Below, in pieces: positions 2,791-26,260 of a DNA stretch of 64,000 nucleotides. The stretch is from an uncultured delta proteobacterium. GTDB taxonomy: Bacteria > Myxococcota > Myxococcia > Myxococcales > Myxococcaceae. The notes under the pieces were generated by a model. That model saw nothing but the letters and a program-made list of their open reading frames with translations, searched no databases and was not told where the DNA came from. A program made the position numbers and the translations under genes. The stretch lies in assembly GCA_963796055.1 (NCBI GenBank), contig CAWCKH010000004.1:1856001-1920000 (forward strand), given 5' to 3'. How positions within the stretch are numbered: the first letter of the stretch is position 1; every line of letters starts with the position of its first letter.

Positions 2791-2813
2791 GCAGAGGTCT
2801 CAGACACCTCTGC
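2791..2813. repeat. REP-like palindrome GCAGAGGTCTC-A-GACACCTCTGC
   Basis: 11-bp inverted arms with 1 mismatch between convergent genes; same motif at the IS target (9299/10618) and at 26242. Confidence 0.75.
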
Positions 2814-8423: not shown

Positions 8424-9245
8424 ATGGCCTGGATACGCGCTACCCACTGGCTCCCCTTGCTGGCGGCAACCGCTGCCCTCGCAGCGCCGAGCGCGCCGCC
8501 GGTGCCTTCACTGAGCAAGGGGACGCTCGTCGACCTCACCCATCCCTTCGACGAGAAGACGCTCTACTGGCCGACCTCCCCCACGCGCTTCGAGTTGAAG
8601 AAGCTCTCCTTCGGTGAGACCCCCGGCGGCTACTTCTACGCCGCGAACTCTCTCTGCACGCCCGAGCACGGCGGCACGCATCTGGACGCGCCGATCCACT
8701 TCTCCAGGGACGGGAAGACAGTCGACCAGATCCCGGTCCGGCAGCTCATTGCCCCGGCGGTGGTGATCGACGTCAGCGCGAAGGCCGCCGCCGATCCCGA
8801 CTACCGCCTCTCGATGGAGGACGTGCGCAGCTGGGAGAAGCAGCACGGGAGCATCCCGCCGGGCGTGATCGTGCTGCTGCGCACCGGCTGGGGGAAGCGC
8901 TGGCCGGACAGGAAGCAGTACCTGGGCGATGACACGCCCGGCGACGCCTCGAAGCTGCACTTCCCCAGCTACGGAAAGGACTCGGCCGAGTACCTGGTGA
9001 ACCAGCGGCACGTCGGAGCGCTGGGTCTCGACACCGCGTCGATCGACCACGGACCCTCGAAGGACTTCGTCGTGCACCGGATCGCCAGCGCCGCCGGAGT
9101 TCCCGGGCTGGAGAACCTCTCCAACCTCGATCAGGTGCCGACGGTGGGCGCCTGGGTCATCGCGTTGCCAATGAAGATCGCCGGCGGATCGGGCGGGCCG
9201 CTCCGGGTCGTCGCGCTCCTTCCTGCCGGTGGTGAGCAGCGCTAA
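8424..9245 (+). CDS. Cyclase family metallohydrolase (KynB/isatin hydrolase-like) with signal peptide
   Basis: EHGGTHLDAPIHF (HxGTHxDxPxH), LLRTGW, DTASID, ENL, ALPMKIAGGSGGPLR. Confidence 0.9.
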   Translation: MAWIRATHWLPLLAATAALAAPSAPPVPSLSKGTLVDLTHPFDEKTLYWPTSPTRFELKKLSFGETPGGYFYAANSLCTPEHGGTHLDAPIHFSRDGKTVDQIPVRQLIAPAVVIDVSAKAAADPDYRLSMEDVRSWEKQHGSIPPGVIVLLRTGWGKRWPDRKQYLGDDTPGDASKLHFPSYGKDSAEYLVNQRHVGALGLDTASIDHGPSKDFVVHRIASAAGVPGLENLSNLDQVPTVGAWVIALPMKIAGGSGGPLRVVALLPAGGEQR

Positions 9246-9302
9246 GTCCTTCGAGTACCGGGGCAGCCCTCCGGTTCAGACCCGCTCGAGCGGACCGCGA
9301 GG

Positions 9303-9311
9303 TGTCAGACA
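9303..9311 (+). repeat. Left 9-bp target-site duplication TGTCAGACA
   Basis: Identical to 10606..10614 and abuts the left terminal inverted repeat. Confidence 0.92.
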
Positions 9312-10605
9312 CTGACGAATCCCCACTTCTCGTGAGGCAGAGCGCGAGGAAAGTCGGGAGCTTGAACGGCGCGTGGCCGCGACACGTCACGCTTGTTCTT
9401 GTGAGAAAACCAGGATCAGTAGACGCGGCCCGCGCCGCGCTTCTTGTCGCGCGTTTCACCAGCCCTCTGCAAGCAGTCCTCGACACCCGGCTCGTCAGCG
9501 CGCTGACGGTCGCAGTGACGGCGGCCTGCATGGGCGCCCAGCTGACGCTGACGTCCCTGGGGCGATGGCTTCCCGGACCAGCGCTTCGCAAGCACTCAGT
9601 GAAGCGCATCGACCGGCTCCTCGGGAACAACAGGTTGCACCTGAAGCTGGCGGCGTGTTGGGCAGCGCTGGCCGCCCTTCCCGCGAAGGGCCGCATCGTC
9701 CTCCTCATCGACTGGACGGGCGCCAACGACGGCAAGCAGTGGTGGGTGCTCAGTGCGTCCCTCGCCGCCGCTGGCAGAGCCATCCCGCTCTACGACGCCG
9801 TCTTCGGCAAGGGAGAGTACGACTCGGTCCGAGCACGGGAGACCTTCCTGCGAGAGCTCGAGCGGATTCTGCCTCCGTGCAGGCGAGTCATCTTCGTGGC
9901 CGATGCTGGCTTTCGGGTGCCCTTTCTCAAGCAGCTGGCTTCCCGCGGCTGGGACTTCGTCGTCCGTCTACGTGGCCGCCCCTACGTCCTGCTCAAGCGC
10001 ACCGGTGAGAGCTTCCGGCTGAAGGAACTCCGCCGTCGCGCAAGGCCAACGGCAGCGTCGCTCGGCCCGGCACAGGTTTGTCGAGGTAGCAAAGCCTTCG
10101 TGTGCCGCCAACTCGTGCTCTTCCGGACGCGGCGGAAGGGACGCAAAGCGAAGGACCGACTGGGCCGTGTCCGGAAGTGGCGACGGAGCCGTCACTACGC
10201 CTCCTCGTGGCGGGAACCGTGGGTGCTGCTCACGTCCCTGCCGGACGGCGCCGAGAGGATTCGGCAGCTCTACTCGATGCGCATGGCCATCGAGGAGACC
10301 TTCCGAGACATCAAGAACCCACGCCTCGGCATGGGTTTCGCCGGCTCCGCCTCACGCTCGCTCCCTCGGGTACGCGTCCTGTGGCTCATCGGCGCCATCG
10401 CCGCGAAGGTCTGCAGGGCGATGGGCGAGCACGCCGAGAAGATAGGCTCGTCCGCGGGCTTCAGGCCAACACCATCAAAGACCGACGGGTGCTCTCCGTC
10501 TTCCGTGCCGGGATGCTCGTCCTCAACATACTCCTCGCCCCCCTCCGGGACGCTCTTGGCGGTCCACCACCCCTACTGCTCGCATGAGAAGTGGGGATCC
10601 GTCAG
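9312..10605 (+). mobile_element. IS4-family insertion sequence, IS10-like (1294 bp)
   Basis: Terminal inverted repeats CTGACGAATCCCCACTTCTC and CTGACGGATCCCCACTTCTC (1 mismatch in 20), resembling the IS10 end CTGATGAATCCCC; 9-bp TSD; DDE transposase inside. Confidence 0.95.
9401..10587 (+). CDS. IS4-family DDE transposase with a frameshift near 10445
   Basis: LLIDWT, FVADAGF, YREK motif YSMRMAIEETFRDIK; C-terminal QANTIKDRRVLS continues in another frame; start codon uncertain. Confidence 0.88.
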
Positions 10606-10614
10606 TGTCAGACA
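10606..10614 (+). repeat. Right 9-bp target-site duplication TGTCAGACA
   Basis: Identical to 9303..9311. Confidence 0.92.
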
Positions 10615-11773
10615 CCTCTGAAGGGGCGGAAGAACTCCCGGATGTCCTGTGCCAGAAGCTCCGGCTCCTCCCAGGCGGCGAAGTGGCCGCCACGCGGCAT
10701 CTCCGTCCACCGACGGACCTCGTACCCGCGCTCCACCCAGCGCCTGGGCGGTGACGGCGCCTCGAGCCGGAAAGCGGGCGAACCCCATCGGCACGCGGAT
10801 CCGCTCACCCGGCCCGAGCTGCAGGGGCGTGAGCTTCGACTCCCGGTAGAGGCGGAGCGATGACGCGGCGGTGTTCGTGACCCAGTACAGCGTCACGTTC
10901 GCCAGCAGCTCGTCGAGCGAGAACCGCGCCTCGACGTCCCCGTCGCAATCGGCCCAGGCGCGGACCTTCTCCAGGATCCACGCCGCCAGTCCCGCCGGAG
11001 AATCGGTCAGCGCGATGCCCAGCGTCCCCGGCCGCGTGGCCTGCACATGCCCGTACGCGCCCTCCTCCTCGGACCAGTCCGCCTTGTCGGAGAGGAACCC
11101 GCGCTCCTCGGCGCTCAGCGTGGCCTCGCCCTCCACCCAGGGCCGGAACGAGCCGGGGATGTAGTTGAGGTGCAGCCCGATCAGGCGCTCCGGCGCATTT
11201 CGCGCCATCCAGGTCGAGATGCCCGCGCCCCAGTCGCCGCCCTGTGCGCCGAATCGTGGATACCCGAGCTGCCCCATCATCTCGATCCACAGGTCGGCCA
11301 CCGCTGCGTTCGACATCCCGGGTGACCTCGGACGCTCCGAGAACCCGTACCCGGGGATCGACGGAACGACCACGTCGAACGCGTCCTGCGCGGACCCCCC
11401 GTGTGCGGCCGGGTCGGCCAGCAGCGGCACGAGCCGGAGCATCTCGAACACCGATCCCGGCCATCCATGGGTGATGACCAGCGGCAGCGGCCTCGGCCCG
11501 CGCCCCTTCATGTGGATGCAGTGGATCGCGCATCCCGTCGACCCGGACCATGAACTGCGGGAACGCGTTCAGCCGGGCCTCGTGGACCCGCCAGTCGAAC
11601 CGGCTCTCCCAGTGGGTCACCACGCGCCGCAGCCAGGCCTGATCGACGCCCTCGCTCCAGCCCACGCCGGCCACCGGCTCGGGCCAGCGCGTCCCGGCGA
11701 GGCGCTCGCGCAGGTCGGCGAGCACCACGTGCGGGACGTTTGCACGGAAGGGCTCCACCGACCCTTGTTCCAT
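10608..11773 (-). pseudogene. Epoxide hydrolase (EHN + alpha/beta fold) with two apparent +1 frameshifts (~11528, ~10767); may be intact in vivo
   Basis: LRERLAGTRWP, HGWPGS, PSIPGYGFS, QGGDWG and GGHFAAWEEP motifs spread over three frames. Confidence 0.85.
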
Positions 11774-11876: not shown

Positions 11877-13229
11877 TCAGTCGCACATCTCGTGTCCGCA
11901 CGGCGGCTTCGCGGTCGGATCGCAGAGCTGGGCACAGCATTGCCCGATGTCCGTGCAGTGCTGGTGCACGTCCTCGTTGTCGATGCTTGGGCATGCGCGC
12001 CCGCAGACGCCGCAGTTGTTGGGGTCGCTCAGCGGCTTGCAGACCCCGCCGCACGGATCGGGATCGAACCCGGGGTTGCACTTCACGCCGCACTGGTACT
12101 GCTCGGTTCCCGCGTTCAGCGTGCAGGTGGGCACGGCGTTGACGATGGAAACCGTGCAGGGGCCCCGGCCGCCGCAGTTGTTCACCGTCCCGTAGTCCTC
12201 CTCGCAGCCGTCTGCGTCCTGATCGGTCGTGAAGTCGCGACAGCCGTTGCTGCGGTTCTTGCAGTCGTGCCACCGGGGCAGATCGCACTGGTACCGGCAC
12301 TCCCCCCCGGCGCAGGCGGGCGGGGCGCCCGCGGTGTTGAAGCTCGCCGCCAGGGTGCCCGGGCACGTCTTCCCGCACGCCCCGCAGTGGTTCAGGTTGT
12401 CGTCGACGCGGGTCTCGCACCCGTCCGTGTCCGTTCCCTCGGAGGTCTCCGCCCCGCCGTTGCAGTTCAGCCAGGGAGCGGTGCAGGGGAAGGTGCAGCT
12501 GCTGCTCGCGCAGCCCACACCCGTGTTCGCCTTCGGCTGACAGGCCGTCTGGCACGCTCCGCAGTGCTGCGGCGTCTGCAACGAGACGCAGGCGAAGCTC
12601 TCCGGACGCCCGTCCGGCCCCGGGCAACATGCCGGAGTCGCCCCAGAGCAGGGCCCGTTCTCGCCCCCGCACGAGCAGGTCCCGACGCACCGGTTCGTCG
12701 ACGTCCGCGAGCAGGTCTCGTCACAGCCCGGACCGCAGTGGGTGGTGTCGGCCTCGTAGGGCGGGTGGCCCGGGGCGGCGATGCAGGTTCCGAGCCTTCC
12801 GTTCAGGCAGACCCGCGTCCCGGCGATGCACATCGTCGCGTCGGGTACGCCGCACGGGCTGGCCGCCCCCTCCGAGCACGACACACCCAGCCTGAAGGCC
12901 TGCTGCGCGCGCGAGGTGCCGTTCGTGACCTGCACGACGAAATCAGCCGATGGCGAGACCACGTCCAGCGGCCTCCCCTCGAGGAGACCCGTGCTCTCAC
13001 CGATGCTCAGCCAGGTGGCCAGCGACGGGGGTAGCTGCGGCAGACTCCAGGAGAGCGAACCGCTCCCGCCCTGCGCCTGGAGCACCACGTTCCGCTCGCG
13101 GTAGTCCCGTCCCACCACAGCGTCGGGCAACGTCGCCGTCTGGATGCTCAGGTCCTGACCCGGGCCGGGCTCGACCGTCCCGCACGCGGCGAGCAGCGCG
13201 ACCGCCATCCACCGTGCCCCCAGCTTCAT
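11877..13229 (-). CDS. Cys-rich lipoprotein with Ig-like (He_PIG-type) domain and CGxCGxxC repeats
   Basis: Lipobox LAAC; TATLPDAVVG...LSIGESTGLLEGRP; repeated HCGACQTAC, HCGACGKTC, NNCGVCGRAC. Confidence 0.8.
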   Translation of the reverse strand: MKLGARWMAVALLAACGTVEPGPGQDLSIQTATLPDAVVGRDYRERNVVLQAQGGSGSLSWSLPQLPPSLATWLSIGESTGLLEGRPLDVVSPSADFVVQVTNGTSRAQQAFRLGVSCSEGAASPCGVPDATMCIAGTRVCLNGRLGTCIAAPGHPPYEADTTHCGPGCDETCSRTSTNRCVGTCSCGGENGPCSGATPACCPGPDGRPESFACVSLQTPQHCGACQTACQPKANTGVGCASSSCTFPCTAPWLNCNGGAETSEGTDTDGCETRVDDNLNHCGACGKTCPGTLAASFNTAGAPPACAGGECRYQCDLPRWHDCKNRSNGCRDFTTDQDADGCEEDYGTVNNCGGRGPCTVSIVNAVPTCTLNAGTEQYQCGVKCNPGFDPDPCGGVCKPLSDPNNCGVCGRACPSIDNEDVHQHCTDIGQCCAQLCDPTAKPPCGHEMCD

Positions 13230-13243
13230 GGCGCGGCCCCCTC

Positions 13244-13259
13244 TGCATTCCCATTGCCA
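13244..13259 (-). promoter_or_regulatory. Candidate sigma54 -24/-12 promoter TGGCAATGGGAATGCA
   Basis: GG-N10-GC spacing, directly upstream of the 13229 lipoprotein. Confidence 0.4.
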
Positions 13260-13291
13260 AGCGTAGCCCTGCTCGAAAATGCTCTGAAAGC

Positions 13292-13307
13292 TGGAATGTC
13301 GCGTGCA
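13292..13307 (+). promoter_or_regulatory. Candidate sigma54 -24/-12 promoter TGGAATGTCGCGTGCA
   Basis: GG-N10-GC spacing, upstream of the 13383 lipoprotein. Confidence 0.4.
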
Positions 13308-13382
13308 AGATCCCGGAGGCACCGGGCGCCGAGGACCCGGGAACTCCACGGGGTTCGTCCGTGCCGACGGACGGGGGGATGC

Positions 13383-15075
13383 ATGTCGAGACGGATCGCC
13401 GCAGGACTGCTGCTGCTCGCCGGCGCCGGGTGCACGTCCCTCGCCCCGGCGGCTGACTGCGCCAGCTCGGCGTGCCCCGATGGTCAGACCTGCGACCCGC
13501 AGACGCGGCTGTGCGTGGTGGATTCTGAGCCCGCAGATCACCGTGCTTTCACCCAAGGCGGACGCCGCGGTGAAGGATCCGGCCCTCGAGCTGCGGGGAA
13601 CAGTCTCCACCTGGTCCGATGCGACCCTGGTGGGGATGAGCTACCAGCTGGTCGATGCGGGGTCCGCGGGAGGCATTCCGGTCGACGGAGGCCTGTTCTC
13701 GCTCACCGTTCCCTTGCCGCCGCTCGACGGGGAGGACGTGCAGCTGGTCCTGCTCGCCCGTGACAGCCAGAACCGCGAGCGACGCGTCGCGGTGCCGCTC
13801 CGGGTGGACGACGTCCCGCCCCACCCCCGTTTCCTCCCGGCCGACGGCGAGCGCGGGGTCGATGTGCAGCTCACCGTGGATTTCGGCGAGCCGGTCAGCG
13901 GCGCCGGAGTCCCCGTGGTGCTCGTTCCCGGCGGCCCGACGGGGACCTACGACTCGACGCACCAGCGCTACGTCGTCGGCGGCCTCGGTCACGACACCGG
14001 CTACCGCGTCGACGTGGATGCCGGCGTGGTGCTCGATACGCTCGGAAACCCGAACCAGCCGGCCACCGCACGCTTCTGGACGGCCGCGCACCCTGCACAG
14101 ACCGGGACCATCGGCGGGCTGGAATCGGTCGTCTCGTTCGACCTCGCATCGGACGAGGACGGCGTGGTGACGCTCGCCATCGAGACCGCCAGCAAGGTGG
14201 TCTGGGGGTGGTTCAACCCCGCCGACGGACAGTTCGCGCAGCTCACCCTGCTCGATGTCGCCGCTCCGCCCCTCGCTGCTCTTCGCACGAGCACCGCGTT
14301 CCAGGCGGATGGCGGGGACCCGCTACGCATCGCCTCGGTCCTCCAGCGCGATGCGACGGACCGGATCGACGTGCGGACCGGGACCCTGTTCGCGACTCCC
14401 TCCGCGGCTTACGCGATTCCAGCCGGGCCTTCGTGCGCCGAGCCTGCGGCGGCACTCGGCACCGTGGGTCTGGTCAGCTCGACCGGGACGTACACCCGCG
14501 GGCCGTACTCGCTGGGCATCGGCTTCGTCCCCGACCGGCTCGCCGTCCGGTCCGAGCAGTTCTGGGAAGTGGTGGCGACGGACGCCCAGCACCGGTTGCT
14601 CCGGGCGTGGTTCCGCGCCAGCTGCGGCGTGGCCCCGATGGCGGAGATCCACGTCGAGTCGCCGGTGCGGACGGATCTCGCGGACGACCCGAAGTTCTCG
14701 CTGGCGTTGCCCCGTGCCGACCGGAGCCTCCTCGCCTTCGACACCCGGACCGGGACGCGGGTCGAGTCGTGTCGCAGCTGCGAGTCCGTCGCCGACGCGG
14801 GCGTCTGCCCTGCCCCGGTGGATCGGTCGGCGACCGGGGAGCTCACCGTCGCCTCCCGGCACGACGGCGGCCGGGTGCTCGGGGCCAGGAGGAATGCGAG
14901 CAACCTCGTCGAGCTCCTCGAGCGCGATCTCTCCAGCGCCTGTGACTCGCCCTGGGCGGTGCTCGCCACGGCGCCGGACAGTGCCTCCGCGGTGGCCTGG
15001 CAGCCCGCCATGTTCGGGCGCAAGCCGGGACTGGTCTACAGCACGGCGACGGACGTCCGGGTCTACGTTCCTTGA
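13383..15075 (+). CDS. Putative lipoprotein (Cys-rich N-terminus, Ig-like domains) with a frameshift near 13530
   Basis: MSRRIAAGLLLLAGAGC lipobox and CxxxxCPDGQTCD knot in one frame; PQITVLSP...VDFGEPV...DTLGNP Ig-like body in the 13303..15075 frame. Confidence 0.7.
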
Positions 15076-26241: not shown

Positions 26242-26260
26242 GGAAGTGTCAGACACCTCC
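26242..26260. repeat. REP-like palindrome GGAAGTGTC-A-GACACCTCC
   Basis: 9-bp arms with 1 mismatch; core TGTCAGACA equals the IS TSD; between convergent genes. Confidence 0.75.

Follow-up and report, generated by a model that had tools for sequence, protein, structure and literature searches.

An IS10-subgroup element inserted at the axis of a genus-specific palindromic repeat associated with HUH Y1 genes in a myxobacterial genome

An insertion element of the IS10 subgroup was found at the centre of a palindromic repeat in the window (the whole stretch of 64,000 nucleotides that was analysed). The genome (5.53 Mb, about 70% GC) contains five full copies of this element, which are 99.8-100% identical, and all five lie at the axis of a copy of the same repeat family. 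Judged from these sequences, it is a real and well-supported repeat-homing element of the IS10 subgroup, whose interest is carried mainly by a pattern that extends over the subgroup. The features of the insertion and of the repeat family are listed in Table 1.

Table 1. Features of the element, its target palindrome and the associated repeats and genes (window coordinates unless C4 is given).
Feature	Position	Strand	Remark
Left neighbour, cyclase-family gene	8424..9245	+	convergent with right neighbour
Left arm of target palindrome, GAGG	9299..9302	+	GAGG before duplication in 5/5 copies
Left 9-bp target-site duplication TGTCAGACA	9303..9311	+	palindrome core
Left terminal inverted repeat, 20 bp	9312..9331	+	begins 5'-CT
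IS4-family (IS10 subgroup) DDE transposase gene	9401..10587	+	about 390 aa in intact copies
One C missing compared to the other four copies	10446..10447	+	frameshift in window copy
Right terminal inverted repeat, 20 bp	10586..10605	-	19/20 match to left
Right 9-bp target-site duplication TGTCAGACA	10606..10614	+	
Right neighbour, epoxide-hydrolase-like gene	10608..11773	-	ends inside palindrome
Right arm of target palindrome, CCTC	10615..10618	+	
Empty repeat copy	2794..2810	no strand	one mismatch in core
Empty repeat copy	26243..26259	no strand	one mismatch
Repeat copies with soil-contig junctions, empty here	C4:2047901; C4:1005928; window 26243		
HUH Y1 genes	C4:2033298-2034215; C4:1006013-1006933		

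The window copy occupies positions 9312-10605. Its placement at the palindrome centre, proposed in the earlier note, was confirmed, with GAGG-TGTCAGACA at 9299-9311 and TGTCAGACA-CCTC at 10606-10618. The length of 1,294 bp given there is correct for this copy, whereas the other four measure 1,295 bp. All five copies are bordered by a perfect 9-bp duplication, with GAGG before and CCT after it, at the palindrome axis. The duplications are TGTCAGACA, TGCCAGACA, TGTCAAACA (twice) and TGTCTGGCA, and the site pattern over the five copies is GAGG-TGYYWRRCA-CCT(C) with constant outer bases. The repeat is broken at the same position in 5/5 copies, which is, from sequence, the type 1 REP association of Tobes and Pareja. 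The constant sequences expected earlier could not be upheld: the NGTCNGACN consensus fits one of the five sites, and 10 of the 245 intergenic NGTCNGACN sites are inside the repeat; TGTCWGACA likewise fits one of the five duplications.

Further copies of the repeat had been noted near positions 2791 and 26242 and were recovered with one mismatch each. At up to three mismatches, the window holds four repeat matches compared to a mean of 0.28 in shuffled sequences. The epoxide-hydrolase-like gene to the right of the element is spread over three reading frames by two apparent single-base losses, and these two frameshifts are likely assembly errors. Its TGA stop codon (minus strand, 10608-10610) is located within the right duplicated 9-mer; since the duplication holds the stop codon, the insertion keeps it intact. 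Beyond this gene, the region 11877-15075 contains the gene of a large cysteine-rich repeat protein at 11877-13610 on the minus strand and, divergent from it, a lipoprotein-like gene of a type typical of myxobacteria. Inside the element no sigma-70-like promoter was found, and its 5' fold was not significant (z -1.5).

The transposase matches Pfam DDE_Tnp_1 and scores 251.7 bits against NCBIfam NF033591, above the IS4 cut-off of 152. With residues counted from the GTG at 9401, the catalytic triad D104, D168 and E298 aligns with D97, D161 and E292 of IS10. The alignment also gives a complete YREK motif (Y291-R294-E298-K305), defined for the IS4 family as Y-(2)-R-(3)-E-(6)-K (PMC2266710). The protein is collinear with the IS10 transposase, without extra domain, and 38% identical to it over 357 aa. 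Together with the anatomy, this bears out the IS10-like identity suggested earlier; an IS10 isoform, whose protein would have to be at least 98% or its DNA at least 95% identical (PMC2266710), was rejected. The size, the CT ends and the 9-bp duplications in 5/5 copies agree with the published description of the IS10 subgroup (length 1,200-1,350 bp, 5'-CT ends, 9-bp direct repeat; De Palmenaer et al., 2008, Table 1, PMC2266710). The predicted model (pLDDT 85.7) has the Tn5 transposase as its top structural match (Z 22.8, rmsd 4.2, 333 aligned residues), followed by a next match at 14.8, and a sequence search against solved structures gave nothing useful. In the tree, in which IS10 is the sole named subgroup member, the query is placed on a long branch.

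The transposase is encoded in a single open frame in four of the five copies without programmed frameshift, a trait of the IS4 family. In the window copy a C is absent after position 10446, which shifts the frame of the last ~45 codons. The missing C is present in all four soil runs of one study and in run X7 of a second study. The loss is probably an assembly error, as five runs carry the C and the neighbouring gene has two frameshifts; a private mutation is less probable. The start codon is unsure, as the codon aligned with the ATG of homologues is GTA at 9419-9421, five bases after CAGGA. This GTA could possibly act as a near-cognate start that keeps the transposase low. The element of locus L024 also has GTA at this position, and three close homologues have no M there.

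The target repeat AGGTGYYWRRCACCT was found in 23-122 copies in 12/12 congeneric genomes and in 0-1 copies in 28 others searched, and it is genus-specific. It is a self-complementary 17-mer, GAGGTGYYWRRCACCTC. A constant GTAG or CGTC tag was absent from 56 repeat contexts read by eye, for which reason assignment to the GTAG/CGTC-tagged REPs was rejected. The genome contains two HUH Y1 genes of 306-308 aa with PF01797 above cut-off and an NH(V/M)HL motif, and homologues are present in 13/13 genomes of the genus. Of 30 RAYT-like genes fetched in the genus, 26 are preceded by the repeat at a distance of 50-93 bp, and in 16 of the 30 loci it is also found downstream (within 300 bp; expected 0.01 per 300 bp). 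Three repeat subtypes were distinguished, and subtypes cluster around their own gene (21/31 and 10/15 within 100 kb). All three are used by the element, including one without nearby cognate gene in this assembly.

The HUH proteins reach 50-54 bits against NF047646, below its cut-off of 80. They read YVLAHG or YVFSHG, so the class 2 signature Y---NP is absent, and the repeat reads GGTGYY, not GGGGWSAS. In a genome of another genus (G222), true inverted repeats bracket the HUH homologues in five of the six loci printed, and these repeats begin like the arms of the target palindrome. From these sequence data the repeat is most likely both product and substrate of a RAYT/TIRYT-like system. The earlier description as a host intergenic repeat holds in that a repeat family is targeted, but this family is not anonymous and is tied to RAYT/TIRYT-like HUH genes.

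The 306-aa myxobacterial HUH Y1 family (loci L001-L004, L195-L222, L263-L270) has a Y-x3-HG motif and fits no published class signature. It is present in several copies in G222 and is palindrome-associated in the genus studied here. The 17-bp palindrome resembles two outer ends of a HUH Y1 unit joined together. Many repeat copies (e.g. C4:1847309, 988226, 1011572) contain short tandem duplications of one arm and the adjacent DNA, which are possibly a trace of HUH-driven replication.

Insertion sites were also seen in metagenomes. Soil contigs from four runs of one study, all of them one-sided unitigs and perhaps from the source sample, connect the element with three copies of the repeat that carry no insertion in the genome (Table 1). 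One of these sites, C4:1005928, is located directly after a RAYT-like gene, and for the copy at 26243-26259 a contig of soil run X4 joins the left flank to the left end of the element. At the known site C4:988462 a soil contig carries the element in the opposite orientation. Once the other copies were collected and their flanks aligned, as a check on the earlier note, 5/5 genomic copies were found at the repeat axis, with these three soil-contig junctions in addition. In another metagenome (L024), a 97%-identical element is bordered on its left by AAGG-TGCCAGACA. A more distant element is represented in a second study by two contigs, which align from 9298 and 9300, across the repeat arm.

Close relatives with flanks were confirmed neither in genome contigs (single-protein query) nor in viral contigs, and one was found in metagenome contigs. 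In the 12 congeneric genomes no transposase at E 1e-40 and no element ends were found, many of these assemblies being so fragmented that absence is not shown. An end-like match in G304 is flanked by coding-like sequence and was regarded as a chance hit.

For the distant IS10-subgroup relatives, target sites were rebuilt from 78 loci and further regions. The register was counted in 58 distinct sites whose 9-bp duplication is perfect, after two mis-called elements and all imperfect and 8-bp duplications had been dropped. Outside this genome and the IS10 clade, 20 of 46 sites read GG-(G/T)G across the left cut (the hyphen marks the cut), compared to a background of 1.4%. Twelve of 23 end-defined lineages have this register in at least half of their sites. 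Many of the relatives' sites are half-sites without hairpin, such as GG-GGTCAGAGT and GG-GGACAGACC. They are similar to the GGGGWSAS motif of the TIRYT terminal repeats, and several fit it. In one G313 lineage the GG-(G/T)G register is seen at just 1/6 sites.

Sixteen targets were compared with the Y1 loci of their own genomes. Five of them match with 0-1 mismatches (at most 5/200 shuffles; genomes G316, G325 and G339), and five others are the unspecific control (Alishewanella) and were all negative. In G325, G339 and G316 the target 13-mer is identical to an inverted repeat beside a TIRYT-type gene (0 mismatches, 0/200 shuffles), and in G339 and G325 the element adjoins this gene. The match was weak in G311 (17/200 shuffles), and none was found in G321. 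The Alishewanella genome is rich in GGGGTCAGATACC repeats, which its element avoids at 5/5 sites. Since abundant repeats are skipped there, the choice of target lies with the element. In G336 and G326 no PF01797 gene was found, though the elements there use the motif.

Other palindromes are used as well. A relative in G162 (39% identical; L011, L019, L084, L169-L173) makes 8-bp duplications at the axis of an ACTCG-N8-CGAGT palindrome, as seen in two full copies and five further ends; eight empty palindrome copies are present, and no Y1 gene tied to this palindrome was found. At L053 a similar 8-bp duplication is located in a GGTGG...CCACC palindrome. In G336 (L094/L168) two copies of a Shewanella relative occupy one GGGGTCAGAGT site as a tandem, with a single 9-bp duplication between them, and two empty exact copies of the motif were found in that genome. 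Elements in G313 (L135-L143) lie beside attC-like CTAAC...CTAAG boxes at 6/7 sites, and insertion in G316 (L151-L153) is just before GTTAGG, also attC-like, at 2/3 sites. Targeting of attC is familiar for IS1111 elements; in the accessible parts of the literature searched, no paper on attC targeting by IS4-family elements was found.

The targeting habit is found in several supported clades of the tree, which leaves out L011, L034, L067 and L135. In this tree 43 rows are unresolved, as is the branching order among these clades, and the ancestral state is accordingly not established. The positions aligned with C134 and C249 of IS10, known as sites of target-specificity mutants, were considered as a specificity key and rejected: their residues differ without constraint and do not separate lineages that target from those that do not. 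The unspecific Alishewanella enzyme (L087 group) has lost most of the basic loop (residues 240-265 here), a single case.

It is probable that the Tn5-like transposase recognizes its site of 13-17 bp by direct read-out of double-stranded DNA. Such a read-out by the protein is favoured by the constant outer bases, by the relatives' half-sites, by the fact that each of the three repeat subtypes is used and by the lack of a guide-like match: the 13-mer of the element that comes closest to the target has four mismatches, and an RNA guide was rejected for this reason. Following IS10 and Tn5 biochemistry, a transposase dimer would excise the element by cut-and-paste and capture the dyad-symmetric target with one subunit per half-site GG-TG, and the element ends would be joined 9 bp apart around the dyad axis. 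The central five bases would tolerate variation, which would make all three repeat subtypes usable.

Because the HUH system would keep making intergenic repeats, the element would be supplied with renewable and harmless landing sites, and it would be a parasite of the repeats of another mobile system. With all five sites outside called genes, a safe-harbour benefit is plausible. Of the safe harbour proposed in the earlier note, the harmless placement is thereby supported, also by the stop codon that is kept, whereas an evolved strategy would be a matter of inference.

It is unlikely that targeting is protein-assisted, with the HUH protein or a host protein at the repeat recruiting the transpososome or bending the DNA. 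In its favour, the targets fall on Y1-gene repeats both in this genus and in three distant genomes, 3/5 copies are located at most 25 kb from a RAYT-like gene, and the attC-like sites of other relatives are also bound by integrases. However, the repeats are densest near RAYT-like genes in any case, and the subtype without nearby cognate gene is used like the others. Furthermore, the motif is used in genomes without PF01797 match, and the element of the TIR-rich genome ignores its repeats.

Targeting by structure, in which an extruded hairpin or cruciform is captured and the sequence matters only through folding, is quite improbable. The reconstructed sites of this genome all fold into a hairpin with a stem of 6-10 bp and a loop of 3-5 nt, and the tolerated variation falls in the loop. 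In addition, REP, TIR and attC are sites of single-strand-processing systems. On the other hand, the genome offers 559 intergenic dyads with a stem of at least 6, of which only the repeat family is used (P ~1e-6). If any intergenic hairpin-forming dyad were acceptable, 5/5 insertions in the repeat would have P <= 7e-6, and generic hairpin targeting was rejected by this count. The relatives also use non-palindromic half-sites in the same register, such as GG-GGTCAGAGT-AA.

Just as improbable is a read-out of the 9-bp IS10-style core TGYYWRRCA only, the overlap with the repeat being due to coincidence and selection against genic insertions. For IS10 itself, the target is given as a symmetric 9-mer. 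Using a crude gene call (4,697 genes, 85% coding), 6,213 NGYYNRRCN, 185 TGYYNRRCA and 77 TGYYWRRCA sites were counted as intergenic, and 48 of the 77 are within the repeat. The probability of 5/5 insertions in the repeat, for patterns derived from the insertion sites themselves, is 3.7e-11 if any intergenic NGYYNRRCN is acceptable, 1.5e-3 for TGYYNRRCA and 0.105 for TGYYWRRCA. The strict core is thus compatible with this genome alone; with eight sites, however, the last value falls to ~0.03. The GG just outside the duplication in 20/46 of the relatives' sites and the recurrence of matches to Y1-gene repeats with different cores in distant phyla also argue against it. Sequence data from this genome make the targeting of the repeat clear, and by themselves do not prove that the arms are read.

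That the palindromes derive from the element, as footprints or carried flanks, would explain why element and repeat are always together at the junctions, but this is already contradicted, as every copy is bordered by a duplicated core of its own and by outer flanks unrelated to those of the others, the repeat is common in 12 congeneric genomes (many of them fragmented) in which no ends or transposase were found, and it lies at a fixed distance from Y1 genes.

With direct read-out by the transposase as the preferred reading, a wider one is put forward tentatively, as a possibility that we would not yet call likely. The IS10 subgroup may largely consist of protein-only, long-site-specific DDE integrases which were repeatedly retuned to recombination sites that belong to other mobile systems (TIRYT/RAYT repeats, further palindromes, integron attC), the looseness of IS10 being the exception. 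If so, the subgroup would offer a natural collection from which to learn how a 13-17-bp target is encoded by a Tn5-fold enzyme, and a source for site-selective insertion tools. Target choice by Tn5/Tn10-type transposases is a long-standing question that has been approached mostly from two loosely selective enzymes. Close structural relatives with tight, lineage-specific targets in one register provide natural variants to map specificity residues, and compact site-selective integrases may be found among them. Finally, one mobile element lives here on repeats that are most likely made by another, by which the little-studied TIRYT repeats gain a second user.

The element shares with IS10/ISVsa5 the size range, similar 5'-CT ends, the 9-bp duplication, the DDE spacing and the YREK motif, at a protein identity of 38%. 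The target choice of IS10 is described as flexible (PMC10359306). Sites of the IS10 clade are degenerate in our sample (0/7 in the GG-(G/T)G register), whereas the element described here is confined to one repeat family.

A fixed insertion point within a repeat family is also known for the REP-targeting IS110/IS1111 elements ISPpu9, ISPpu10, ISPa11 and ISRm19 and for the IS3-family element ISPsy8 (PMC1525189). IS110 elements are described as using a DEDD recombinase and an RNA guide. The RNA-guided IS110/IS1111 class was rejected for the present element, which has a DDE/Tn5 fold and no guide-like match to its 13-bp targets.

In TIRtron/TIRYT and RAYT-REP systems, the probable source of the target, a HUH Y1 gene likewise has a repeat beside it whose copies make up a genome-wide family. 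The GGGGWSAS motif was described by Di Nocera et al. (2013, PMC3733652), and the class signatures, including Y---NP of class 2, by Quentin et al. (2018, PMC6006769). In contrast, the repeat in this genus is the untagged 17-mer, and its HUH protein is without Y---NP and below the NF047646 cut-off. IS4 elements in TIRs are not mentioned in the accessible portions of these two papers. In the literature searched, most subscription journals and ISfinder aside, no report of IS10-subgroup elements in TIRYT/RAYT repeats was found; Figure 3 of PMC2266710, which gives a target consensus per element, may already show such a consensus.

The closest precedent in habit is ISRm22 of Sinorhizobium meliloti, an IS4-family element that inserts in REPs at the palindrome axis (Tobes and Pareja, 2006, PMC1525189). 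By this published case the finding is less new than the earlier note implied: an IS4 element in REP or repeat palindromes is already known, and it is the link to TIRYT repeats and the breadth across the subgroup that were not found in the literature searched. As in the present element, all copies of ISRm22 are located in a repeated palindrome at its axis. It differs in its subgroup, IS4Sa (De Palmenaer et al., 2008, PMC2266710), and in its direct repeats, reported to be 6 bp (PMC1525189) compared to the 9-bp duplication here. Furthermore, the present element targets the repeat of a 306-aa HUH transposase family, and its habit is shared by many IS10-subgroup lineages with different targets.
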